From a virus, in the IMG/VR virus record IMGVR_UViG_3300035703_000045, positions 1-64,000 of that record: 64,000 nucleotides of DNA, one strand, 5' to 3'. Under the pieces are notes generated by a model. It ran no database searches. It was not told the DNA's origin and saw only the letters and a list, made by a program, of their open reading frames with translations. Below are positions 13,022 through 34,744 of the stretch, in pieces (position 1 is the stretch's first letter; the number at the start of each line of letters is the position of its first letter). A program made the position numbers and the translations under genes.

Positions 13022-13717
13022 TGTGGATTAACCATGGGGGGTGTGGATATCCCTGTGGATAATGCCGTTATCCACAGCCCTATCTGTGGATAAGTGGTGT
13101 AGTTATCCACATCCCTGTGGGCAATTCTGTGGATAAGTGGCTGTCAAGGGGCAATTGTGTGACATTTGTCATGTGGATAACCCCATTTCCTGTGGATAAC
13201 TATGTGGATAACCCCGAAACCCTGTGTATAACCCATTTCAGCCTGTGGATAAAGATACCCCAAGGGGTACCGTACGCTGGGGAAATGCAAAGTGGGCTTG
13301 TTCATTGACTTTCTGCACGATTTCAGTGCATTTGCCCTGCTCAGAGGCACATTTCGTTGTCCACAGCGATCTGTGGAAATCGCCGTAGAGCCGTTTGGAG
13401 GCTCTGGAGGGGGTGCAGTGCCCCGAAACGCTGGAGGCTGTCAGAGGGCGAAATAGGGGGCAATGAGAGGAAAGTGTCATAACGTGGCATCAGCCCTAGA
13501 AATGGGGCTATGGGTGAGACAAATGTCACAAGTGGGGGGTAGGTGCAGGTATTTGCACTATGCAATCAATCCCCCATCAACTATTTGTACTCTGCAATAG
13601 TTGCACCCTACAAGTATCCCCGTCGCATCCCCCCTATGACCCCCTCTGATATCCCATTCATATATATGTCCAATTTCCGATCCAGTTATCCACAGGGGGC
13701 GCAGAAAGTTATCCACA
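13022..13717. promoter_or_regulatory. DnaA-box cluster (oriC-like or datA-like locus)
   Basis: Perfect TTATCCACA/TGTGGATAA starting at 13054, 13068, 13085, 13103, 13128, 13172, 13191, 13203, 13244, 13686, 13709; TGTGTATAA at 13223; TTGTCCACA at 13357; near-matches at 13022, 13042, 13116, 13372. Confidence 0.88.
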
Positions 13718-14119: not shown

Positions 14120-14175
14120 GTTGGGAGATGCCCCACTAGGGGGCGATTCATGAGGTGCGATCCCTCCTCCCAACA
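14120..14175 (+). ncRNA. tRNA-like mini-element 1 (acceptor stem plus T-arm)
   Basis: GTTGGGAG...GAGG-TGCGATC-CCTC-CTCCCAAC-A with an internal GCCCC/GGGGC hairpin. Confidence 0.4.
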
Positions 14176-14195
14176 CTGCTGACATCCCGTCAGCC

Positions 14196-14212
14196 TGCGT
14201 TCCCGTAACGCA
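14196..14212. repeat. Intergenic palindrome, copy 1 (TGCGTTCCCGTAACGCA, one mismatch)
   Basis: Matches consensus TGCGTTAC-S-GTAACGCA; lies just upstream of the GAAAGGAC RBS. Confidence 0.8.
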
Positions 14213-14231
14213 CCAACCCGAAAGGACAGCA

Positions 14232-14873
14232 ATGAACACCACCGACAACCGAGGGGTTCTCACCCCCATCCACACCGCCTGCGAGATCGCCGAGTCGGCT
14301 CTCGCTGATGCCAACGAGGTGCTCGCCTGCCTGCCAGTGATCATGGATGCCAGCGAGGGTGTCAGCAATCGTGACATCGCCTACTGGGGCGTGAGCGAGG
14401 GCATGGTTCGCCGGTACAAGGTGCTCGCCACCATCATCGCCTTGGGCGACGACGAGGGTGCCCAGTGCGATCTCTTCACGGCTCGCAAGGTCGTGAACGC
14501 CACGTTCAAGGTCAAGGGCATCACCACCGAGATGATGAACGAGGTCATCGCTGAGAGCGACACCGTGTCGCAGGCGGTCGCTGGTCTTCAGGCTCTCGCC
14601 TTGGCTCCGGTCATGACCGAGGTGGACGAGGACGAGACGGACGGCGACGGCGACGGCGACGAGGATCAGACCCCCGACCCCAAGGACGACCTCGCCAAGA
14701 AGGTCACCAACTGGCTCACGGCTGGTCAGGGTTCGCTTCGCAAGGTCGTGGAGGCGCAGGGCAACGGGTTCGTCCTGACCGATGAGCAGGTCGTCGCTCT
14801 CACCACCCTGACCGACCTCGTCGCTCAGATCAACGCCAACGCCAACGCTCAGAAGACGGTCGTCGCCGTCTGA
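14232..14873 (+). CDS. Hypothetical protein, first gene of the plus-strand region
   Basis: GAAAGGAC RBS, strong GC3 bias, acidic DGDGD linker. Confidence 0.8.
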   Translation: MNTTDNRGVLTPIHTACEIAESALADANEVLACLPVIMDASEGVSNRDIAYWGVSEGMVRRYKVLATIIALGDDEGAQCDLFTARKVVNATFKVKGITTEMMNEVIAESDTVSQAVAGLQALALAPVMTEVDEDETDGDGDGDEDQTPDPKDDLAKKVTNWLTAGQGSLRKVVEAQGNGFVLTDEQVVALTTLTDLVAQINANANAQKTVVAV

Positions 14874-14880
14874 TGACACC

Positions 14881-14948
14881 GCCAGTAGCAGTGGGGATGC
14901 CACGGGGCATCAGCAATCCCACGGGGGGTTCAACTCCCCCCACTGGCA
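14881..14948 (+). ncRNA. tRNA-like mini-element 2 (acceptor stem plus T-arm, no D-arm)
   Basis: GCCAGT...GTGGG-GATGCC-ACGG-GGCATC...CCCAC-G-GGGGG-TTCAACT-CCCCC-C-ACTGGC-A. Confidence 0.5.
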
Positions 14949-14998
14949 CTGCTGGACGAGTGCACGGGCAACTGTGCGCTCGTCTAGTATCAACACCG

Positions 14999-15015
14999 TG
15001 CGTTACCGTAACGCA
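14999..15015. repeat. Intergenic palindrome, copy 2
   Basis: TGCGTTACCGTAACGCA upstream of the RBS of the gene at 15035. Confidence 0.85.
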
Positions 15016-15034
15016 CCCGAATGAAAGGACAGCC

Positions 15035-15874
15035 ATGAACCAGCCCAGCGAGAAGCAGATCGGATTCATCCGGTCTCTCGTCAACGAGCGTCGTCAGACG
15101 CTCACCGACCTCAAGCCCGAGTGGCTCACCACTCCGACCACGACCCGTGAGGCGAGCGACATCATCTCCCGACTGATGGATCTGCCCCGTGACCCGAAGG
15201 CTCCGACCGCCGAAGATGCCGACCTCGCCACCGACATGGCAATCCTCAAGAACGGACTGGGCGAATTGTCGGGGCGTGACTTCCACTTCGCCTCGTCGCT
15301 CGTCAAGCAGTACGAAGAGCGTGGCACCCTGTCCGACCGCCAACGGGCGTTCATCCCCAAGTTGTTCAAGGCGATGGACGGTGCTGACAAGCCCGTGCCC
15401 ATGGGCATCCACCGTGCCAGCGACGGCACCATCGTCCTCGTCTACCTGACCAAGAACGGTCGTCAGGCTGGCAAGGTGCTGGACGAGGGCACCTTCATCT
15501 ACGCCAGCGGTGTCATCGCCCGTTTCAACCTGTCCGACGAGACGGTGATCTCGCAGGCGCAGGCTCAGGAGTTCGGGCGCACCCACGGCTTCTGCGTGGC
15601 ATGTGCCAAGCCCCTCACCGACGACCGCTCGCTCGCATCGGGCTACGGCGCAGTGTGCGCTGGCAAGTACGGGTGGCACTACTGCACCCGTGAAGAGGCG
15701 GTGGCGATCTTGGGTCGCCCCGTCGCCTGCCAGCACCAGTGGGAGTTGGTCAAGACGGACACCAACTACTACAACCCCCAATTGGGGACGGGGTCGTGGA
15801 CGGAGCACTACGAGTGCGCCAACTGCGACGAGTGCAAGACGGTCAACATCGTCAACAACCGCTCGGGCGACTGA
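15035..15874 (+). CDS. DUF6011-like zinc-binding protein
   Basis: GFCVACAKPLTDDRSLASGYGAVCA; N-terminal SEKQIGFIRSL; start moved to the ATG after GAAAGGAC. Confidence 0.7.
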   Translation: MNQPSEKQIGFIRSLVNERRQTLTDLKPEWLTTPTTTREASDIISRLMDLPRDPKAPTAEDADLATDMAILKNGLGELSGRDFHFASSLVKQYEERGTLSDRQRAFIPKLFKAMDGADKPVPMGIHRASDGTIVLVYLTKNGRQAGKVLDEGTFIYASGVIARFNLSDETVISQAQAQEFGRTHGFCVACAKPLTDDRSLASGYGAVCAGKYGWHYCTREEAVAILGRPVACQHQWELVKTDTNYYNPQLGTGSWTEHYECANCDECKTVNIVNNRSGD

Positions 15875-15935
15875 TCAGGGGGTGGTATCGGGCAATCTGA
15901 TATCCATCCCATATCCCATCCGACTGCTGGGGGGT

Positions 15936-15952
15936 TGCGTTACCGTAACGCA
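15936..15952. repeat. Intergenic palindrome, copy 3
   Basis: TGCGTTACCGTAACGCA flanked by a G-run and a C-run. Confidence 0.85.
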
Positions 15953-16002
15953 CCCCCTAGCCTGACCCTTCCAACCAACCCAACCACCGAAAGGACACCA
16001 CC

Positions 16003-17568
16003 ATGTCGTTCATTGACGACTTCCTCAACGACCTCCAGCCCACCGCTGGACGACCCTCGCCCCAACCTGTGGGCGTGTCCAGCCTCACCGTCCCGACCCT
16101 GCACCTGCCCCTGATGGACTACCAGCAGGAGTCGGTGCAGTTCGCATTGACCCGTCGCAGTGCCTACCTCGCCCTTGACATGGGCTTGGGCAAGACGGCA
16201 GTCGCCATCGCCATCGCCACTGCTGTTGCCCAGCAGGAGCACCGTCAGGTGCTCATCGTGGTGCCCCCGTCGCTCCGTACCAACTGGGTGCGAGAGTTCG
16301 GGAAGTTCAGCCCCGACCTCAGCATCCACGTCTTTGACAAGTCGGCTCCCACGCCGACCATCAGGGTGCCTCGCATGGTCAACGGCTCCCCGTTGACGGT
16401 GGACGGCAAGAAGGTCATGGACGAGGTTCCCAACCCGAACCCTCCGACCCTCCCGACCAGCAACGTGCTCATCGTGGGCGACTCCACCGTGGAGGGCTGG
16501 GCGCACTGGTTGTCCACCTCTCCCCGTCCGGTCGGTGCGGTCATCGTTGATGAGGCGCATCGGATGAAGAATCCGAAGGCGTTGCGAACCAAGGCTCTCG
16601 CCCAACTCATCAAGTCCATGCCCAGCGACGGCGTGAGGATCATGATGTCGGGCACCCCTGCGCCCAACGGTCGTGCGTCGGAACTCGCCACCGCACTGGA
16701 ACTGGTGGACGGCTGGAGCACGGTCTCCAAGGGCACGTTCTGGCACTACTACTGCCCCCCTGCCAAGTTCGGTCGTGAGCATCTGCCCGAGCGTGTGCAG
16801 GAGTTGGGCGAGAAGTGCCGGAGCACGTTCATGCTCCGTCGCCTCCGTGGTGAGGTGCTGACCCTCCCGAACAAGGGACGCAGTGCCATCGCCGTGGAGG
16901 GCAAGGGCACCGCCGTGCGTAAGTACATCAGCGCAGAGGAAGACCTCATTGAATTCCTCAGCGGTGAGGGTCGCTCCACTGAGGGTGCCGGTCGTGCAGA
17001 AGCACTGGTGCGTCTCACCACTCTCCGTGCCCTCGCTGGTCAGGCGAAGGTGGACGGTGCGGTCACCCTCATCAAGGAGATGCTGGAGGACGACCCCTCG
17101 GGCATCCTCGTCATCGCAGAGCATCAGGCGGTCATGGACGCACTGGAGATGGCGTTCATCGGCAAGGCTGTCAGCATCCGTGGTGGCATGACCGACACGC
17201 AGAAGAGCGATGCCGTGGACATGTTCAACGGTGGTCACGCTCAGGTGCTCATCGGTCAGATCACCAGTGCAGGCGTGGGCTTCACCCTGCACGGTGGTGG
17301 TCGCAACCATCGGGTCGTCGTCGTGCAGTTGCCGTGGACTCCTGCTGAACTCCAGCAGGCAGAGGATCGCCTCCACCGCATCGGGCAGACGCACGATGTG
17401 GAGGTGACCATTGTGCTCACGCACATTGATGGCAAGTGGAGCATTGATGAGCGACTGTGGGGTCTCTTGGAGCAGAAGGCGTTCAGTGCCACCGCCATGA
17501 TCAACGGCGAGGGAGAGTTCCTCACGGACAGCGAAATCCGTGAGGGTCTGCTGGACACCTACCGCTGA
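16003..17568 (+). CDS. SNF2-family (SF2) helicase/translocase
   Basis: DMGLGKT, VVPPSLRTNW, DEAH, SGTP, QAEDRLHRIGQ. Confidence 0.92.
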   Translation: MSFIDDFLNDLQPTAGRPSPQPVGVSSLTVPTLHLPLMDYQQESVQFALTRRSAYLALDMGLGKTAVAIAIATAVAQQEHRQVLIVVPPSLRTNWVREFGKFSPDLSIHVFDKSAPTPTIRVPRMVNGSPLTVDGKKVMDEVPNPNPPTLPTSNVLIVGDSTVEGWAHWLSTSPRPVGAVIVDEAHRMKNPKALRTKALAQLIKSMPSDGVRIMMSGTPAPNGRASELATALELVDGWSTVSKGTFWHYYCPPAKFGREHLPERVQELGEKCRSTFMLRRLRGEVLTLPNKGRSAIAVEGKGTAVRKYISAEEDLIEFLSGEGRSTEGAGRAEALVRLTTLRALAGQAKVDGAVTLIKEMLEDDPSGILVIAEHQAVMDALEMAFIGKAVSIRGGMTDTQKSDAVDMFNGGHAQVLIGQITSAGVGFTLHGGGRNHRVVVVQLPWTPAELQQAEDRLHRIGQTHDVEVTIVLTHIDGKWSIDERLWGLLEQKAFSATAMINGEGEFLTDSEIREGLLDTYR

Positions 17569-17582
17569 CCCCACCCCGACCA

Positions 17583-17615
17583 CGGTGGGGTGCGTTACGG
17601 TAACGCACCCCACCG
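17583..17615. repeat. Intergenic palindrome, copy 4 (33-bp inverted repeat)
   Basis: CGGTGGGG-TGCGTTACGGTAACGCA-CCCCACCG. Confidence 0.9.
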
Positions 17616-17707
17616 ATATCCATATCAAAGGTTGCAATATCAGATTGCGACCCCTAGAATCCCAGTTACAAGTTCAGACCAACCCAACCACAAGAAAGGC
17701 AATCAAC

Positions 17708-18934
17708 ATGGCAACCATCCAAGAACTCGCTCTCGCCAAGCGACAGAACAAGCAGGCTCTCGCCACATCGGGAACGATGGAGGGCATGCGGTGCGACATC
17801 ATGTCGGACTCGCTCGTCCCCGACGGACAGCCCAACCAGCGCAAGGTCGCTGTCAAGTGGGAGGACGGCGAGGAGGGCTTCTACCTGCCCCGTCAGTTGG
17901 AGGTCGTGGAGCCGAAGACCCACGCCTTCATCCCGACCGCACAGCCCGTCCTCGTTGGACAGGCACAGCCCCAGCCCGTGGCGTTGTCCAGTGCCCCTGC
18001 CGTCGTGATGGGTGCGCTTCCCAGCCACCCCGACCACGACTTCTACGACGAGTTCCGTCCGTCGCCCGTCGTCAAGGAGATGCACATCGCCCGTCAGGCG
18101 ATGCTGGGGAGCGACCTCAACTCCACCGAGTACCTCATGGAGTGGTGGAACAAGCGTGACGAGTCGGGCTTCAGCAAGCCCCTCGCCCTCGTCGGTGACA
18201 CGCAGGCTGGCAAGACCATGGAGGTGGAGCGTCTCGCATTCGCCATCGCAGAGCGCATGGGTCTCAGCAAGCCCGTCCCCGTCTTCACGGTGATGGGTTC
18301 CAACGGCGTGACCGATCACGATCTGTTCGGCACCACTCGCACTGACCCCATGACGGGTCAGCCCGTGTTCATGCGTGGCACCGTGCAGATGGCTTGCGAG
18401 GCTCCCGTCGCCATCCTCTACTTGGATGAGGTCAACGCCATGGGTGGCAACGTCACCAGTGCCCTGCACCCCATCATTGACGGACGACACAAGTTCACCA
18501 ACTTGCGTCTCCCCGTCCGTACCGAGGCTGGCTACAGCCCCATGACCATCAACGTCTCCAAGGGTCTGTGGGTCATCGCCTCTTGGAACCCTGCCTACGC
18601 TGGCATGAACAAGACCAACGAGGCGTTCACCGCACGGTTCAAGGTGCTGGAGTGGAACTACGACTCCGCACTGGAAGACCACATCATCGGCTCGCCTGCG
18701 CTCCGCATGCTGGCTGACCAGTTGCGGAACCTGCGCTCCAAGCGCATCCTCAACACGCCGGTCGGTATCACCGACCTCAAGGACATCAAGTGGGAGGCGC
18801 ACAAGTTCGGTGCCAAGGTCGCACTGGATTCCTTCTTGGGCAAGTTCATCAGCGAGGCTGAGAAGATGGCGGTCTCGTCGGCAATGACCGACGGCTCCAT
18901 CTATCAAACCCTCCAGTTGGAGGTGAACTCCTGA
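17708..18934 (+). CDS. MoxR/CbbQ-like AAA+ ATPase
   Basis: Walker A GDTQAGKT, Walker B LYLDEVN, ASWNPAYAG...NEAFTARF; start at the ATG after GAAAGG. Confidence 0.85.
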   Translation: MATIQELALAKRQNKQALATSGTMEGMRCDIMSDSLVPDGQPNQRKVAVKWEDGEEGFYLPRQLEVVEPKTHAFIPTAQPVLVGQAQPQPVALSSAPAVVMGALPSHPDHDFYDEFRPSPVVKEMHIARQAMLGSDLNSTEYLMEWWNKRDESGFSKPLALVGDTQAGKTMEVERLAFAIAERMGLSKPVPVFTVMGSNGVTDHDLFGTTRTDPMTGQPVFMRGTVQMACEAPVAILYLDEVNAMGGNVTSALHPIIDGRHKFTNLRLPVRTEAGYSPMTINVSKGLWVIASWNPAYAGMNKTNEAFTARFKVLEWNYDSALEDHIIGSPALRMLADQLRNLRSKRILNTPVGITDLKDIKWEAHKFGAKVALDSFLGKFISEAEKMAVSSAMTDGSIYQTLQLEVNS

Positions 18935-18939
18935 CAGCC

Positions 18940-18974
18940 TGAGGTGGGTGCGTTACGGTAACGCACCCACCTCA
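18940..18974. repeat. Intergenic palindrome, copy 5 (35-bp inverted repeat)
   Basis: TGAGGTGGG-TGCGTTACGGTAACGCA-CCCACCTCA. Confidence 0.9.
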
Positions 18975-19074
18975 TACCCCACCCATACCGATATCAACTG
19001 CAAGCAGAACCATCCACTTGCATTTGAACTTCATCACACCCACCCCGTACACTCATCAACAGAGAGGACACATC

Positions 19075-21156
19075 ATGACGAAGAAGCAGTTGACCCCCGA
19101 AGAGATGATGGAGCGCAACGTGCGTCGGCAGATGCAGAGGCACGGTGCCAAGATCCGTGAGCGCATCAAGGCTGACACCGAACTGCACGAAGAGCAGAAG
19201 CGTCAAGAGGCGCAGAAACTCATCGCACAGATGGAGGCGAGTGCCAACCGAGGCACGGTGGAGCACAGCGACTACGACAAGGCGCAGTGGCTGTGCGACA
19301 GCATCAAGCAGATCACCACGGTCGTGGCTCGCTCGTTTGGTCAAGACCAGCCCATCGTGCACAAGTACAGCAACATGATTGCTGACCGCATGTTGATGGC
19401 GTTCACTGACCTGAAGGTGGTGACCATCGGCATCAAGCCGTCGCTCGTTCAATTCTCCAGCGACGAAGAAGTGCGGCGCACCACTGCTGTGATCAAGGGT
19501 GCCACCTACCATGAGTTCGCCCACTGCATGTGGACGAAGCATCTCATCAAGGACTACTTCCCGATTGACGATAACGCCCACAAGAACTTCAAGGCGTGGA
19601 ACCTCTTGGAGGACGGACGCATTGAGGCTCTGCTCATCGTGAAGTCTCCGATCATCAAGAAGTACCTTCTTCCGATGATGTGGGACATCGTCGTGAACGT
19701 CGGTGACGAGAGCACTGATGAGTACGACAGGGTGTACCGAATCGCACGGGCAGTACCTTTCTTGCTTGTTCGCACCTACATTCCAAAGGGCATCCAGCGT
19801 CAGGCTGTCATGAACGTGTGGAAGGTACTGGATCTCTCAAACAGAGACACCCCAGCAACTCGTCAGAATGTCAAGAACATCATCAGCGAGATGCTGTCAG
19901 TGAGCCGTGGGTACAACGCCTGCACGGACATGAATGACCAAATCCCGTTCATCGTTCGGTTCAGCGAGTTGCTCAACGAGTGGGGACAACTGTTCGGTCG
20001 GGTCTTCACCAATGACAGTGCTGGTGACCCCAGTGGTCGTACTGGTGAATCATCGTCGGTGGAATCGGTGGAGTCCCCGTCCGAGTGGGACGAGTCCGAG
20101 TGGGACAACAGCACACCTGCACCCAGCACCTCCGATGGTGACAGCAAGCCGGAGAACTCAGCCAAGGGTGAGTCGCACAAGCCATCTGATATGGATATGG
20201 AATCGGACGATGACTCCGACTTCAGCGTCAAGCCCAGCGCAGACGACAAGGACGACAAGCCCAGCGACTCCGACGACAAGGAGAACGATGGCTCCAAGGA
20301 CGATGAGCAATCGCAGGGGAAGTCATCCGACCACGGTGACGAGTCCAACAACAATCCGCACGAAGAGTTGAACAAGGCTGTCAACGAAGCCGTGAGTGAC
20401 TACGAGTTGTCGGCGGTCATGAAGCACTGGGGTGACACCCTCCGCACTGGGTTGCCCTCCTACACGCAACCTCTCCCCACCGATAGCAAAGTGACCGATG
20501 ACGGAGAGATGGTTCGCATCGGCATGATCAATGCACTGGACACGGTGGTCATGACCGCCAGCCCGTCATGGAAGTACCGCATGGAGACTGGTGCCGTGCT
20601 GGATGTGGATGCCTTCACCAACCGTGAGGTGGGTGACGATGCCTACTGGATGGACAAGGACGACAGTGGTGAGCGTGGTCACGACCTCGCCATCAGCATC
20701 CTGCTGGACTGCTCAGGCTCCATGATGGGCACATACTCCGCACTGGGGTCGTGTGCATACGGAATCCATAGCGCATCACAGTCGCTTGGTATCCCGTGCA
20801 CGACGAGCATCTTCGGGACGCACCAGTACATCCTGTGGGGCGAGGACGAGACCCCGACTCCAGTGATCATGCCCGACCTTGGTGGTACTCAGGTTCGGGA
20901 ATGCTTGGAGTCGCTCCCGACTCAACGAGCAGGCAAGTCACGGCAGATCGTGTTCATCCTCACCGATGGTGATTGGGAGTACGACATCCCCACGCTCCTG
21001 CCCTACATGGATGAGGACGTGCACATCGTTCTGATCGGATTGGGGATGCCCTTGGCAAAGTTGACTCAGAAGTCCCCCAGCCGTGCGATCACCATCAAGT
21101 CGGTGATTGATCTGCCGAAGATGGTTGAGCAGGTCATCGGAGACTTCTTCCGGTGA
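19075..21156 (+). CDS. VWA-domain protein with N-terminal HExxH region (CobT-like architecture, MoxR partner)
   Basis: YHEFAH...WNLLEDGRIE; acidic linker; MIDAS motif LLDCSGSM...GGT...ILTDG. Confidence 0.85.
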   Translation: MTKKQLTPEEMMERNVRRQMQRHGAKIRERIKADTELHEEQKRQEAQKLIAQMEASANRGTVEHSDYDKAQWLCDSIKQITTVVARSFGQDQPIVHKYSNMIADRMLMAFTDLKVVTIGIKPSLVQFSSDEEVRRTTAVIKGATYHEFAHCMWTKHLIKDYFPIDDNAHKNFKAWNLLEDGRIEALLIVKSPIIKKYLLPMMWDIVVNVGDESTDEYDRVYRIARAVPFLLVRTYIPKGIQRQAVMNVWKVLDLSNRDTPATRQNVKNIISEMLSVSRGYNACTDMNDQIPFIVRFSELLNEWGQLFGRVFTNDSAGDPSGRTGESSSVESVESPSEWDESEWDNSTPAPSTSDGDSKPENSAKGESHKPSDMDMESDDDSDFSVKPSADDKDDKPSDSDDKENDGSKDDEQSQGKSSDHGDESNNNPHEELNKAVNEAVSDYELSAVMKHWGDTLRTGLPSYTQPLPTDSKVTDDGEMVRIGMINALDTVVMTASPSWKYRMETGAVLDVDAFTNREVGDDAYWMDKDDSGERGHDLAISILLDCSGSMMGTYSALGSCAYGIHSASQSLGIPCTTSIFGTHQYILWGEDETPTPVIMPDLGGTQVRECLESLPTQRAGKSRQIVFILTDGDWEYDIPTLLPYMDEDVHIVLIGLGMPLAKLTQKSPSRAITIKSVIDLPKMVEQVIGDFFR

Positions 21157-21252
21157 CCTGCCACCCATTTGATATCCAACCCATATCCATCCATATGGAC
21201 GGCACCGCATGCAACTGTGGTGCCGTCCAACTGGACGGTCACTGAAACAGTG

Positions 21253-21269
21253 TGCGTTACGGTAACGCA
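21253..21269. repeat. Intergenic palindrome, copy 6
   Basis: TGCGTTACGGTAACGCA, preceded by a GCAA-capped hairpin at about 21196-21229. Confidence 0.85.
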
Positions 21270-21333
21270 CTGAGTTGCAAGACACGACAAGAACAGATAG
21301 TTTGAAATCAAACACAACTAGGAAGGCACAACG

Positions 21334-21642
21334 ATGACGAACACAACGACAGAAGTAACATCCGACATGCTGTGGGACATGAACTTTGCGACCGGCGAAG
21401 ACATCAAGTTCATCTCTTACAGCGGTCGTGCGATGTACGGCAAGACCTGCTTTGGTGTGGTGCTCCCCTGCGCTGAGGATGCCGTGCTGTGGGCACTCAA
21501 CCTGAGCGCAGAAGAGTTCGCTCCGATCCTGAACAACCCTCGGATTGACAGCATGGGTCGCAACATCGTGGTCTACTTCCCGAACCTCATCATCAGCGAC
21601 GAGACGCTCGCTGAGTGGTCGGACGACGAGGACGAGGACTGA
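21334..21642 (+). CDS. Hypothetical phage protein
   Basis: YSGRAMYGKTCFGV...DSMGRNIVVYFP; AGGAAGG RBS. Confidence 0.7.
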   Translation: MTNTTTEVTSDMLWDMNFATGEDIKFISYSGRAMYGKTCFGVVLPCAEDAVLWALNLSAEEFAPILNNPRIDSMGRNIVVYFPNLIISDETLAEWSDDEDED

Positions 21643-23074: not shown

Positions 23075-23194
23075 CATCCCACCCATTTGATATCCCGATA
23101 TCAGATAGATAAGAAAGAAATCACAAATCAGGTTGCAAACATCTGTGCAAACTGATTGAATACAAACAGAGAAACCAACAGGAAGGAAACACCC

Positions 23195-25379: not shown

Positions 25380-25718
25380 ATGGATATCAAGACAATCATC
25401 AACCTCTTGACTGCGGGTCAGATAGAAGCCACGAAGGCGGTGGAACTGATCGCTATTGAATGCGACACAGACCCAGCCGTACTCATCACGGCACTCAAGA
25501 AGATCCACACGACCAAGACCTCAACTCGTTTCACCCCACAGGATATTGCTAGTGTCATCTCCATGTGGCAGAACGGCGCAACAAAGGGTCAGATCGCCAA
25601 GCAACTCGGGCGTGACCGCATCAGCATCAACAACCTGATCGCTCGTCTTCGCAAGAAGGGCATTGACCTTCCCGTGCGCCCCATCCGCACAGCCGACAAT
25701 CAGTTGAGCCTGTTCTGA
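25380..25718 (+). CDS. Helix-turn-helix DNA-binding protein ending in QLSLF
   Basis: GATKGQIAKQLGRDRISINNLIARLRKKG; the C-terminal QLSLF equals the beta-clamp-binding consensus. Confidence 0.75.
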   Translation: MDIKTIINLLTAGQIEATKAVELIAIECDTDPAVLITALKKIHTTKTSTRFTPQDIASVISMWQNGATKGQIAKQLGRDRISINNLIARLRKKGIDLPVRPIRTADNQLSLF

Positions 25719-29578: not shown

Positions 29579-30649
29579 TTACCAATTTGTCAGAACATCA
29601 ATTAGGTTCTTTGCCCCAATTGAGATATCTCGTTGGCGAACCAGATCTTGGAACTGACTCCCCAGATCCGTGCGGAGAGAGGGGTCACTAAGAGATTTGA
29701 TACCCCGTATCCAATCATGTGCATTCTTTGCTACCAACCCAATACCATAGTCATTTGCAAGGGACTTGTATGACGAGGTGTCTTGGGCGATGAATGGAAC
29801 ACCGGCTGAAGCGTACTCAAGACCTTTGATGTCGGACTTGGCTTCGTTGAATGGGATCTTGTTGAGAGGAACCACTCCGATATCCATATCCATTAGGTAT
29901 GGATACTCCTCCGCTGGCACCGAATTGCGGGTTCTCACCAACTCCTCAGAGACCCCAAGTTCGGAAGCAAAGGTGGGGGCAGACTCATGGTGACCACCGT
30001 GGTACAGATGTACAGCACCGTTCTCTGCCATGGGCTTCAGCCATCCCGACATCGTTTGGATGTCTTGGCTACGGTGCGCCGTGCTACCCACCCACCCCAC
30101 CGTAGGGGTAGTGCTTCCTGAATCGGTATGACACCCCTTGAAACGGGCGACATCCACATAGTTAGGTAGGACGATTATGGGGCACCGTACAAACTGCTTG
30201 ATACGGTCAGCAAGGTACGGGGTGCTGACAGTAACAAAGTTTGAACGAGCAATGACACCTTTGTAATGGTTGGTGTTCTCTGTCGGATTCTTGGAAGGGT
30301 GGTTGATCCAGTACGCCTGATTGGTGACACTCAGTCCCCAATACCAGTCGTCTAGATCGTTGATGATGATCTGACCGGCTTTCTGCGCCATGGGGATGTG
30401 GGTGAGAAGACCCTGATGCATGAGGCGTTGCATGTAGATGACATCTACATCGTGAACTCCCCCAGCAATATCAACGATGAAGAACCTGTTGGATATCCAA
30501 GTCAGAACCCCGACATGTGTTTCAAATGGAAATAGGGACACATACTGTCCCATCCGTGCCCATCCGCTACCGCCCCAATGGGGTTTGTCGCTATTCAGTT
30601 TCTTCGGATGGATCCAATCCCCCGACGCTATTCCTAGACGCACGGACAT
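29579..30649 (-). CDS. GT-B glycosyltransferase (family 1/4-like)
   Basis: NDLDD, TVSTPYLA, VGWVGS..H..D, DIGVVPL...FNEAKSDIKGLEYASAGVP. Confidence 0.85.
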   Translation of the reverse strand: MSVRLGIASGDWIHPKKLNSDKPHWGGSGWARMGQYVSLFPFETHVGVLTWISNRFFIVDIAGGVHDVDVIYMQRLMHQGLLTHIPMAQKAGQIIINDLDDWYWGLSVTNQAYWINHPSKNPTENTNHYKGVIARSNFVTVSTPYLADRIKQFVRCPIIVLPNYVDVARFKGCHTDSGSTTPTVGWVGSTAHRSQDIQTMSGWLKPMAENGAVHLYHGGHHESAPTFASELGVSEELVRTRNSVPAEEYPYLMDMDIGVVPLNKIPFNEAKSDIKGLEYASAGVPFIAQDTSSYKSLANDYGIGLVAKNAHDWIRGIKSLSDPSLRTDLGSQFQDLVRQRDISIGAKNLIDVLTNW

Positions 30650-30815
30650 TCCCTTTTCGTTCCATGACAAATGATTTACGGTTCTTGATGGTGTCACCCT
30701 TCTCTGTCATGGCTGAACACCTGTGGATAGGTGCCTGAGTCATGGGAACAAAGATACTTGTCGTTGCACGACAATTAGGGCACACATAGCGACCAGCAGG
30801 GAATGTCTCACTCAT
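30591..30815 (-). CDS. Small zinc-finger protein
   Basis: YVCPNC...HRC; TAGAAT -10 lies 7 nt before the ATG. Confidence 0.4.
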   Translation of the reverse strand: MSETFPAGRYVCPNCRATTSIFVPMTQAPIHRCSAMTEKGDTIKNRKSFVMERKGNVRASRNSVGGLDPSEETE

Positions 30816-32629: not shown

Positions 32630-32860
32630 TCACGATGACTTCTTCGTTCCGTACATGGCGACCGACTGAATTTGGTCAAGAAGCCATGCTGATGCCTCGT
32701 TAATACCATCCTGTGAAACAATGTCCCAACTCTGCCAAAGAGTGCAGTGCTTCTCCTTCAACCACTCCCTGATCAGATCTTGGGTGATGGATACATCTTG
32801 GGTTTCGTTAAGTACGTCGTCCATGGACGGGAACTTATCAATTATCTTGGCTGATGTCAA
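32630..32860 (-). CDS. Hypothetical protein
   Basis: Packed ORF. Confidence 0.45.
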   Translation of the reverse strand: MTSAKIIDKFPSMDDVLNETQDVSITQDLIREWLKEKHCTLWQSWDIVSQDGINEASAWLLDQIQSVAMYGTKKSS

Positions 32861-34274
32861 TCACTGATTGAATAAAACGGTCAGTTTGATTTGCGTTCAT
32901 ACCGCCACCATCCAGTTGACGGGCGGTATCCCCTGCTCGTTGACCAAACAGCCTAGAAAGTACTCCTGAACTTCCACGGGCTTCAACTTCAATACGCATC
33001 ATATCCCGACTATCAGATATGTTCTTAAACCTATCAATGAGGGAGAACAGGCGATCCATCTCCGAGGATAGGGCTGGGTCAATACCCTGACCCTCCAGTT
33101 CTTCAGCAAACCGAGCGAACAAAACACGGCTTGCCTGCATCTCAATCATGGCTTGCAGTACTGCGGTCAACTGATCCTTTGTACGGATCTCAACAGGTAG
33201 ACGAAACCCACATTCTGAATTCTCTTGGAATGCAGGACAACGGCTGGCTAGATAGCAACTATTGCACTGTCGCAGAGGGTTGCTCTGATACCTAATAACA
33301 GGTGTCTCTTGAGGGTCAATTTCTATTAATTCTCCCTGCTCAGAGTGGGTTTGTGTACCCATTGAGAGCAGGTGTTCAATACCCATAACCGGTAGCAACA
33401 TACGGTCACTGTCGTGCCTCTTTTGTACTGGGGGTATATCAACATTTGTACCCTTCGGAACCATAGAAAGCCCACTTGGGGTTGAGGGGGATATATTAAC
33501 TATTTCCCCATCTTCAGAGTTTACAAACTCATTCTCATCATCCGCTGGGGATGGGTCATAGCCCCCAAATGTACGCTCCTCCCACTGCAACCACGAGCGG
33601 ATTGCAAGGGTTCCCACAGCGTCAACACTGTCCTCCATAACGGCTTCGTAGTCCACTCCGAGGCGCATGATGTCGGGGCGATGCTTCTTGCGTGATGACT
33701 CTTTCTGCTGGGCTGGGTACCGTCGTAGACCATGACCATCCCATACCTGAGTCTCGCCGTACCGGATAGCAGATGTCCATGATCCGACGACCACAACCTC
33801 CCATGGCAGGGCTTCAATGATGTCAGGTTTACTTGTTAAACCGAACAACTTGGTGTCCCAGCGGTTTGAAAGCGAACGAATGCGAGGAAGAGTTTTAGTA
33901 TCAATAGCCTTATCAGATATAGCAACACGCCCATATCGCTGGCATATCCAAGCGAGACGCTCTAAATCGTCACCGGCGTTCCAAACTGGGATGTACTTGT
34001 CTCCAAGCCAGTCGCCGTCCATGTCGGGGCGACCAATTACATAGGTCAAATAGTCGGCGTACTCACGCACAAAGTCTGTATACCCCGTCAGGTTCTCGTC
34101 ACCTTCGCTGGTGTAGACCAGCAGTTCCGCTCCAGCAAACACAACAGAAGGGTCAAACTCTTTCCGTTTGGGAACAGGGAGATGAGTGACATTGACACCC
34201 ATTCTTTGTACATTGTTAGCAATCAGGAGGTTTCTGTGGGTGCCTTTCTCGGCTCCACCTAGAAAGATTCTCAT
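32838..34274 (-). CDS. Large hypothetical protein with alpha/beta N-domain and C-terminal four-Cys cluster
   Basis: MRIFLGGAE...IPVW...LFGLT...SWTSAIRYG; CNSC...CPAF...C. Confidence 0.7.
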   Translation of the reverse strand: MRIFLGGAEKGTHRNLLIANNVQRMGVNVTHLPVPKRKEFDPSVVFAGAELLVYTSEGDENLTGYTDFVREYADYLTYVIGRPDMDGDWLGDKYIPVWNAGDDLERLAWICQRYGRVAISDKAIDTKTLPRIRSLSNRWDTKLFGLTSKPDIIEALPWEVVVVGSWTSAIRYGETQVWDGHGLRRYPAQQKESSRKKHRPDIMRLGVDYEAVMEDSVDAVGTLAIRSWLQWEERTFGGYDPSPADDENEFVNSEDGEIVNISPSTPSGLSMVPKGTNVDIPPVQKRHDSDRMLLPVMGIEHLLSMGTQTHSEQGELIEIDPQETPVIRYQSNPLRQCNSCYLASRCPAFQENSECGFRLPVEIRTKDQLTAVLQAMIEMQASRVLFARFAEELEGQGIDPALSSEMDRLFSLIDRFKNISDSRDMMRIEVEARGSSGVLSRLFGQRAGDTARQLDGGGMNANQTDRFIQSVIDISQDN

Positions 34275-34744
34275 TCTTCTCTCCACGCTTTCTCAGCCAT
34301 CTTTACTGCCTGATTGTCCATTTCCTCAACCATGGTATCCCATTCTTTGATGACACGCCCACCGTCCCATTCCGGTCGGATGATGTACGGGCAGGCAACT
34401 AGGAGAGTAGGAATGCCCAGTCTCAAGGTTTCGGCGCAGGTACGGGGGTCATTGTCAATGTACCAATCAACCTTTCCAAAGACAGCAGAGATTCGGTGAA
34501 CCTTCTCAGCCCTCAAGTTGGGGCTTGGTTCATCAAGGATCTCATAGAAGGAAGGCTTGAACCCCTCCTTCTTTAGCCAGTGCTCAATGATCGGACGTTC
34601 GTAGTCTTCATTGATAATGACGCACATACGCCCTATGGAGTTATCAAATAGGGCATTCCATATCTTGCGTCCGTCAGGATCAGGCTGGCGTAGAGCGAGT
34701 GTCTCAGCAGGGCGAGCCAGTACGGAGAAGTTGAACAGAATCAC
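34271..34744 (-). CDS. HAD-like protein with degenerate motifs
   Basis: ILFNFSVL...WYIDNDP...LGIPTLLV. Confidence 0.45.
   Translation of the reverse strand: MILFNFSVLARPAETLALRQPDPDGRKIWNALFDNSIGRMCVIINEDYERPIIEHWLKKEGFKPSFYEILDEPSPNLRAEKVHRISAVFGKVDWYIDNDPRTCAETLRLGIPTLLVACPYIIRPEWDGGRVIKEWDTMVEEMDNQAVKMAEKAWREE

Follow-up and report, generated by a model that had tools for sequence, protein, structure and literature searches.

What does one short palindrome do at the junctions between the early genes of an uncultured phage? The question is raised by a stretch of 64,000 nucleotides, here called the window, which is the first 64 kb of the 93,044-bp IMG/VR virus record IMGVR_UViG_3300035703_000045 (about 99% complete); the phage itself is labelled G000. 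In the block from 14 to 21 kb, where G+C content is 56–63% against about 45–48% elsewhere, the palindrome TGCGTTAC-S-GTAACGCA occurs six times. The feature is strongly non-random and is part of a family-wide system. Docking sites for a phage regulator are the most likely explanation, because related phages have their own, different palindrome at the same places. We give a probability of about one half to the reading, drawn from sequence comparison, that the palindromes are operators for a phage helix-turn-helix (HTH) regulator, located in or beside GC-rich hairpins that lack a U-tract.

A palindrome ahead of each of the first six plus-strand genes

Written as 7+3+7, the 17-bp core reads TGCGTTA-CSG-TAACGCA. 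We searched with the pattern TGCGTTAC-N-GTAACGCA and took the chance expectation from shuffles. The window held six matches, at 14196, 14999, 15936, 17591, 18949 and 21253, and no additional site with two or fewer mismatches (shuffles predict 0.02), and the remainder of the 93,044-bp record held none even with up to three mismatches. A sequence-only reading of the window had listed these six cores, one ahead of each of the first six plus-strand genes, and had noticed none elsewhere; matches and gene starts agree with it, and the scan extends its observation to the full record. Five of the six palindromes are exact and the copy at 14196 has one mismatch (TGCGTTCCCGTAACGCA). Each site occupies its own non-coding gap, 19–109 nt ahead of the start codon (start codons at 14232, 15035, 16003, 17708, 19075 or 19018, and 21334), and all six are confined to one 7-kb block. 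The middle base is C at sites 1–3 and G at sites 4–6, three of each relative to transcription.

The exact 17-mer was found in 39 stretches of prokaryote genomes (596 Gb), in 3 of 2.9 million viral contigs and in 89 metagenome stretches. Outside the phage almost all occurrences are lone copies, at chance level and spread across unrelated phyla, and tblastx of the stretches bearing them revealed no similarity to the window phage. Among 185,579 prokaryote species no genome had more than one copy. Random scatter, which would have spoken against a functional array, was not seen in the phage genome, and elsewhere the 17-mer is found almost only as scattered single copies. Two metagenome stretches, whose DNA has no detected similarity to the phage, carry the site doubled by a 95-bp tandem duplication; in one of them (L012:7590-7760, WNGR01000762.1), each duplicated unit consists of the 17-mer (TGCGTTACTGTAACGCA) followed by a GC hairpin.

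A lineage-private palindrome at matching places in related phages

An alignment of AAA_5 homologues led to 60 viral loci, five of which (G001–G005, whole records) are syntenic with the window phage and have structural and replication proteins 50–80% identical to its own. Each of the five has 8–12 copies of a 17-bp 7+3+7 palindrome in one roughly 18-kb, GC-enriched early block. The motif scan of relatives that the sequence-only reading had proposed thus returned analogous palindromes in the same early block, with a core that is private to the lineage (table 1); counts in syntenic relatives run from 8 to 17. In G002, sites mostly begin within about 40 nt past a stop codon (10–16 nt at most junctions) and lie 35–65 nt ahead of a Shine–Dalgarno sequence and start codon; many of them top an extended GC hairpin, and the remaining ones have a separate hairpin alongside.

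The closest comparison was between G002 and G003, whose DNA is 91–98% identical over most of the block, yet all of whose cores differ. At six orthologous junctions the flanks were identical at 309 of 360 positions, against 3 of 30 for the central 5 nt, and at one junction the core had changed within a flank that was identical throughout (60/60). A switch of all cores in step requires a common sequence reader or homogenisation between copies; independent drift of hairpins is not sufficient.

Site positions are also kept over greater distances. L102 has the gene order of the window, with proteins 41–52% identical, and 4 of its 16 sites are intragenic, one in the AAA_5 gene and three more inside other genes. 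The loci L097/098 and L103 share with L102 an in-frame copy in the AAA_5 gene. Each carries the palindrome of its lineage at one and the same spot of the variable linker, 12–15 codons before the conserved SLDDP motif (L097:7204, L102:10237, L103:10247); these copies encode VVTVT, VSQRET or LIIS. Across lineages with about 40% protein identity the site thus stays in place and its sequence is that of the lineage, as selection on a binding site predicts, and the short arms of the intragenic copies would make poor terminators. In L097 an ATG follows soon after the intragenic palindrome, a possible internal start or control point. The leader after the palindrome of one small L102 gene resembles the leader after site 1 of the window, though the palindromes differ.

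In a different reading the sites are recombination substrates or selfish mini-repeats. Short homologous or hairpin-forming sequences at the edges of cassettes would allow early genes to be exchanged, and gene conversion would keep the copies uniform, with no regulatory role. Several breakpoints in the similarity of G002 and G003 lie no more than about 50 nt from a site, one 236-bp segment has been relocated from one site's side to another's, and the small genes between sites vary among relatives, each gene with its own site; two indels in Cluster O mycobacteriophages are likewise flanked by the repeat of that cluster (PMC4351075). Nearly every gap of the block contains a site, however, so breakpoints near sites are expected anyway. 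The sites are limited to one block rather than spread genome-wide, and scans of block proteins turned up no recombinase. Integron attC sites are imperfect palindromes with extrahelical bases beside a tyrosine recombinase; the palindromes here are perfect. Conserved positions with changing sequence, in frame in AAA_5, point to selection on the site itself rather than to a spreading repeat. Recombination at the repeats probably happens, because mosaic breakpoints lie near the sites, yet it leaves the conserved positions unexplained. The earlier suggestion of exchangeable cassettes is in keeping with the breakpoints and the varying gene content and falls short on the positions; as a full account of the array we regard recombination as quite improbable.

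Further observations concern palindromes in these relatives. In G002 at 86813 (L161:6813), with equivalents in G001 and G003–G005, a palindrome stands among minus-strand genes and directly precedes the ribosome-binding site of one that encodes 369 aa; its homologue in the window (29579-30697, minus strand) has no palindrome and has a promoter-like match at 30850-30823. In the lineages with CTAAT-S-ATTAG and CTAAC-N-GTTAG cores, the right end of the palindrome merges into the ribosome-binding site (..TTAGgag..) at many sites (L103, L100, L109, L112). Palindromes of this type hold stop codons in two of three frames per strand, which could affect translation. The repeat TGTGAC-N4-GTCACA of L147, L148 and L153 forms tandem clusters in one non-coding region beside DnaA boxes; we treated it as a separate element and did not count it.

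Symmetry of the sites and strength of the hairpins

At positions 8 and 10 of the core, on either side of the central base, 40 of the 47 sites in G000 and G002–G005 had complementary bases, compared with 25% by chance, although a 1-nt loop makes their pairing impossible. A dyad that takes in unpaired bases, together with the use of both orientations, is in line with duplex DNA bound by a protein of two-fold symmetry; loop-specific recognition of RNA does not fit. The sites are not independent, so this symmetry is support and not proof. The 17-mer is also what an operator is expected to be, a two-fold symmetric double-stranded site of about 14–20 bp.

The palindromes are at the same time tied to strong hairpins. 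The two perfect inverted repeats noted earlier, 33 bp at 17583-17615 and 35 bp at 18940-18974, were found again with arms of 16 and 17, and the extended stem of site 3 has one mismatch and one G.U pair. In the fold, sites 4 and 5 had stems of 15–16 bp and site 3 one of about 15 bp, with flank bases of the GGGG/CCCC type at all three. Sites 1, 2 and 6 have arms of 7–8 bp with little extension, and each has a separate GC hairpin just upstream. RNA folds of the six junction windows ranged from -14.6 to -44.1 kcal/mol (z-scores -3.0 to -6.0), and windows centred on sites 3–5 folded at -27 to -30 kcal/mol. Outside the conserved core the flanks differ from site to site and keep their complementarity through compensatory changes, and the extended stems contain five wobble pairs, few and partly paralogous, all of them sense-strand G.U and none A.C. 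As first noted, no T-run follows any of the six sites, and a terminator scan of the plus strand gave no hit; of the features of an intrinsic terminator, the GC-rich stem-loop is present and the U run directly 3' of the stem is absent. The view that sequence and structure are both under selection is upheld by relatives that keep the sites and switch the core in concert, and by flanks that stay complementary.

Could the palindromes then be RNA elements? Each junction hairpin of the polycistronic early transcript would then terminate or attenuate transcription with no U-tract, shield a 3' end, or be cut by a hairpin-specific RNA-binding protein that is RNase III-like or encoded by the phage. Such a protein would recognise the conserved stem, in the manner known from T7 early processing sites or Cas6-type repeat hairpins. 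This is consistent with the stability of all junction windows, with the compensatory flanks and sense-strand wobbles, and with the separate GC hairpin beside those cores that lack an extended stem. The hairpins also lie where terminators or 3'-end protectors would be, and G002 sites come shortly after stop codons. Against this stand the complementarity of positions 8 and 10, which cannot pair, and a loop base that is C or G relative to transcription. Some sites of relatives have arms of only 6–7 bp, a variable centre and no extended stem, and some of these are intragenic; in some lineages the palindrome lies upstream of the hairpin and not at its tip. A change of all cores in step needs a reader of sequence, and the protein that co-varies with the core has HTH DNA-binding folds. 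Stems of 15–16 bp are moreover short for RNase III. An RNA-only reading appears unlikely to us; the long stems may still have a role as RNA, in RNase III-like processing, as suggested earlier, or otherwise.

Two other short motifs were seen at the junctions. CTGCTG occurs upstream of the hairpins at junctions 1–3 (14170-14195, 14940-14960 and 15925-15935). GATATCC is enriched in the window (24 matches versus 6.8 expected). It adjoins junctions 3, 4 and 6 and also occurs within the gap 23075-23194 (15899, 17615, 21171, 23089; also 13046 and 13648), often in the context ..cccatttGATATCCa.., and may be a second junction motif. Relatives L149 and L151 repeat ATCGATATCGAT.

Candidate site-binding proteins

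Directly after the ATPase gene, G002 encodes a 162-aa protein with three HTH units (HTH_23, HTH_28), hereafter 3xHTH. It was the only Pfam-recognisable sequence-specific DNA-binding protein among 20 products of the G002 block scanned, the other matches being WhiB proteins. Between G002 and G003 it differs only by S33T and L40F, with 5 synonymous codon changes elsewhere; the 3xHTH genes of the two relatives lie at L161:1558-2046 and L162:12059-12547. In an AlphaFold2 model (pLDDT 78) the recognition helix of HTH-1 spans residues 34–46, which places S33T just before it and L40F inside it. The G001 protein, whose phage has the same core as G002, has three substitutions, all outside this helix. 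Residue 40 also differs in a second pair, being isoleucine in G005 (A-CSG-T type) and valine in G004 (G-TWA-C type). The helices of HTH-2 and HTH-3 are conserved across the G-relatives compared, and so are the outer TGTCCC arms of the palindrome. These comparisons are suggestive of co-variation between HTH-1 and the core.

The 3xHTH family was found in six contigs and no further ones. In the window, the first candidate for a site-binding regulator is a 112-aa tandem-HTH protein (25380-25718) with sub-threshold matches to HTH_23 and HTH_ParB. Its L102 ortholog is 43% identical and has a weak GcrA match, and homologues occur in 17 of the 60 loci. It aligns to HTH-2 and HTH-3 of the 3xHTH family (hhalign probability 57%, E 1e-4) and probably corresponds to the protein of the relatives.

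The product of gene 1 is a second candidate. It has a helical N-domain with an HTH-like GVSNRD..YWGVSE..VRRY, an acidic linker and a helical C-domain, evolves fast, and has positional counterparts in G002, G003 and L102. Searches against Pfam, PHROGs and NCBIfam gave no match; a whole-library hidden Markov model search returned 7 representatives, six clear members and one weak (E 1e-4), and viral contigs searched with an alignment of gene 1 proteins gave none. The top Foldseek rows for its AlphaFold2 model (pLDDT 80) were the DNA-binding domains of ParB, SopB and VirB, all weak (E 0.3–3), with a VIA Z of 3.2 against 2ntz. Neither Foldseek nor VIA rose above background, and we dropped the assignment to a ParB-like or other known DNA-binding fold.

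The sequence-only reading had named an operator for an HTH or WhiB regulator among its candidates. The HTH half is now the best supported, through dyad symmetry that includes bases unable to pair and, in relatives, through intragenic copies and a recognition helix that changes with the core; WhiB proteins were not implicated.

Promoter-like matches and a model for the early block

Consensus matches to sigma-70-like promoters follow sites 4 and 6 (table 1). The large gap that comes next in the block has no palindrome; at 23133-23161 it contains TTGCAA-17-TTGAAT, the third promoter-like match to share this -35 box. We also considered the palindrome as a -35 element, since a GATAGT box follows some relatives' sites by 14–18 nt, and rejected this because the spacing is variable and most sites have no such box.

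Might the palindromes instead be promoters, either of the N4 hairpin type, as earlier proposed, or of another class used by a phage polymerase or sigma factor? With 7 bp of stem and 3 nt of loop the hairpin is as large as those of N4 early promoters, and there is one site per gene. A promoter must, however, be directional, whereas these perfect palindromes are used in both orientations; they stand anywhere between 19 and 109 nt ahead of the start codon, and ordinary sigma-70-like matches adjoin two of them. No RNA polymerase was found among the 13 window open reading frames of at least 330 aa that were scanned, a partial scan that leaves out 16 beyond the window and small ones. The use of both orientations and the lack of a polymerase among the reading frames scanned make promoters of this kind highly improbable.

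We return to the operator reading. The six palindromes would form one regulon, bound by a phage-encoded, sequence-specific protein of two-fold symmetry, most probably a tandem-HTH protein of the 25380-25718 kind, with the gene 1 product as the second choice. Each junction of the GC-rich early block would carry an operator that either caps a strong hairpin or closely follows one, and at two junctions the operator would stand just ahead of a sigma-70-like promoter match. Occupancy may control each early gene at its own junction, either because re-initiation is repressed there or because the bound protein is a roadblock to read-through. The hairpins may work at the level of the transcript, as terminators, attenuators or protectors of 3' ends. 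A junction would thus couple two modules, a GC hairpin for the transcript and a 17-bp operator for the DNA; hairpin and palindrome are fused at some junctions, adjacent at others and in reversed order in some lineages. Binding, the identity of the binder and the sign of regulation are what we infer from these comparisons.

Several observations weigh against this reading. Promoter-like matches were found near only two of the six sites, with none evident at sites 1–3 and 5, and sigma-70-like matches are not enriched across the window. The window has no 3xHTH gene, only the weakly related tandem-HTH protein, and many relatives with the tandem-HTH family have no repeated palindrome in the 20-kb stretches examined. 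The relatives in which core switching was compared are distant kin of the window phage; the co-variation with 3xHTH comes from two switches only, and residue 40 is maybe partly buried. Gene conversion between repeats could also have homogenised the cores. Wobbles that are sense-strand G.U only, together with compensatory flanks, indicate selection on RNA, which an operator alone would not need.

A bolder version, which we offer tentatively and with the odds against it, is that the early block runs on a private operator code. A single tandem-HTH reader would serve a dozen or so operators, some of them intragenic and all re-coded together, and each operator would be fused to an intercistronic RNA hairpin so that it acts on DNA and RNA. 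If true, neither of the near-identical phages G002 and G003 would any longer read the early genes of the other, and a whole regulon would form a barrier that resembles immunity. The phage group amounts to a natural experiment in which all operators have switched in step and two residues separate the sole recognisable DNA-binding protein. Testing four proteins for binding to three oligonucleotides (the 17-mers TGCGTTACSGTAACGCA, TGTCCCACSGTGGGACA and TGTCCCGASTCGGGACA) could settle the role of such arrays and would also reveal any joint change of operator code and reader. For phages that are uncultured and without genetics, this would be a first handle on early gene control.

Gene context of the array

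The coordinates of the block and of the neighbouring candidate, together with the cores of relatives, are given in table 1. The fifth gene encodes a large acidic protein, the partner of the AAA_5 ATPase.

Table 1. Features of the early block in the window, and palindrome cores of related phages.
Feature	Position	Strand	Remarks
Small hairpin, 6-bp stem	14178..14194	+	abuts site 1 upstream; fold
Site 1	14196..14212	no strand	TGCGTTC-CCG-TAACGCA, mismatch in left arm; gene 1 start 20 nt on
Gene 1 (213 aa)	14232..14873	+	head of block; fold unassigned; candidate
Separate GC-rich 13-bp hairpin	14955..14984	+	14 nt 5' of site 2; one sense-strand G.U; region -36 kcal/mol, z -5.3
Site 2, exact	14999..15015	no strand	DUF6011 gene start 19 nt on
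Genes 2–6, sites between them	15035..21642	+	DUF6011, SNF2 helicase, AAA_5 (MoxR-like) ATPase, large acidic protein, 102-aa protein
Site 3 (core 15936-15952), tip of extended GC hairpin	15926..15961	no strand	SNF2 helicase gene 50 nt on; z -4.5
Site 4 (core 17591-17607) in 33-bp perfect inverted repeat	17583..17615	no strand	14 nt past SNF2 stop; z -5.9
TTGCAA-17-TAGAAT, sigma-70-like	17632..17660	+	24 nt after site 4, 5' of AAA_5 gene; consensus match only
Site 5 (core 18949-18965) in 35-bp perfect inverted repeat	18940..18974	no strand	5 nt past AAA_5 stop; z -6.0
Separate GC-rich 14-bp hairpin	21196..21229	+	5' of site 6; fold
Site 6, exact	21253..21269	no strand	gene 6 start 64 nt on
TTGCAA-17-TAGTTT, promoter-like	21275..21303	+	5 nt after site 6; consensus match only
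Tandem-HTH protein, 112 aa	25380..25718	+	first candidate site-binding regulator
Palindrome of G001, G002, G005			core TGTCCCA-CSG-TGGGACA; 8–12 per record
Palindrome of G003			core TGTCCCG-AST-CGGGACA; 12 per record
Palindrome of G004			core TGTCCCG-TWA-CGGGACA; 9 per record
Palindrome of L102, L145			core GTCTCA-N3-TGAGAC; 16 and 8 copies; long stems absent
Palindrome of L097, L098			core TGTAAC-N-GTTACA; 7 and 6 copies
Palindrome of L099, L100, L103, L104			core CTAAT-S-ATTAG; 5–11 copies; adjoin ribosome-binding site
Palindrome of L109–L112			core CTAAC-N-GTTAG; 3–4 copies

Megablast and tblastn against 50,697 phage records gave a best protein identity of 25–35% and nothing closer. The top DNA polymerase matches of the window phage were Streptomyces phages, at 35% identity, and no cultured phage is near; proteins 90–97% identical to the AAA_5 and gene 1 products do exist. 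WhiB genes indicate an actinobacterial host, and the hosts of this uncultured group are probably freshwater or soil Actinobacteria. The idea that the GC-rich block is a recent foreign island was dropped, because the same block is enriched in GC in relatives too.

Ahead of the block, a 1.3-kb non-coding gap that separates it from minus-strand genes contains a dense cluster of DnaA-box-like 9-mers (TGTGGATAA / TTATCCACA) at 13042-13252, with 11 exact copies in 13054-13252 and others at 13686 and 13709. Such clusters likewise head the blocks of relatives L105 and L148. Further downstream, the open reading frame 32838-34286 (minus strand) matches the PHROG for queuine tRNA-ribosyltransferase (E 1.6e-41), a family that in phages is often a marker of 7-deazaguanine DNA modification.

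Comparison with known systems

Hairpins between early genes are known from the T7 early RNase III sites and from lambda nut/boxB, where boxB is private to each lambdoid phage and co-varies with N. These elements act as RNA, are directional and are asymmetric through the loop, unlike the palindromes of the window. RNase III sites of the T7 type are irregular double-stranded RNA stems of about two helical turns that lie between cistrons; the stems here measure 15–16 bp at sites 4–5, about 15 bp at site 3 and 7–8 bp at sites 1, 2 and 6.

Systems in which one HTH reader serves many genes through a dispersed palindrome of a dozen or fewer copies include the KorB OB sites of plasmid RK2 and the SopB sites of phage N15. 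Their readers belong to the ParB family; the resemblance of the gene 1 product to it is weak (E 0.3–3, Z 3.2). For the 3xHTH model, Cbp1 of Sulfolobus (PDB 2lvs) was among the best Foldseek rows (probability 0.99, E 0.07, 26% identity over 95 columns). Cbp1 is likewise a chain of three HTH units, which binds interspersed (CRISPR) DNA repeats; the score is weak and the protein archaeal, so the analogy extends to the binding mode only.

Another such system is the set of conserved inverted repeat (CIR) operators of phiC31, a temperate 41-kb Streptomyces phage that has its own class of early promoters; these operators are bound by its repressor. They too are 17-bp inverted repeats with many intergenic copies in the early region of an actinophage, served by one repressor. 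No repressor homologue was identified here, where lysogeny genes were not searched for. The stoperators of cluster A phages L5 and D29 share with the window sites the character of operator-like junction sites that act on transcription passing through. They are asymmetric, 13 bp long and biased in orientation, whereas the window sites are perfect palindromes in both orientations; the D29 paper describes them as scattered over the genome and as resembling a -35 element (PMC12266134).

The closest published case is that of the Cluster O mycobacteriophages, with 34 copies of the 17-bp repeat 5'-TGTTCGG-NNN-CCGAACA, mostly in the short gaps of one non-structural operon, absent from host genomes and with indels between copies (Cresawn et al. 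2015, PMC4351075). Its authors proposed sites for a dimeric regulator, doubted a transcriptional role and left the function unknown (PMC4351075). Both repeats are 17 bp long, 7+3+7 in layout, with TG...CA ends and G/C-rich flanks, and multicopy in an actinophage; in the window the arms are invariant in five of six copies. The Cluster O copies are genome-wide, a third of them intragenic, with an A/T-rich centre and no reported long hairpins, whereas the window phage has six, all intergenic and in one GC-rich block, palindromic through the centre and associated with long GC hairpins. A tblastn search limited to the two candidate proteins against phage records found no protein similarity to Cluster O phages. 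Palindromes at actinophage gene junctions have thus been noted since phiC31 and Cluster O; what is new here is their concerted re-coding in near-identical phages, the conserved positions of intragenic sites and the coupling to hairpins.

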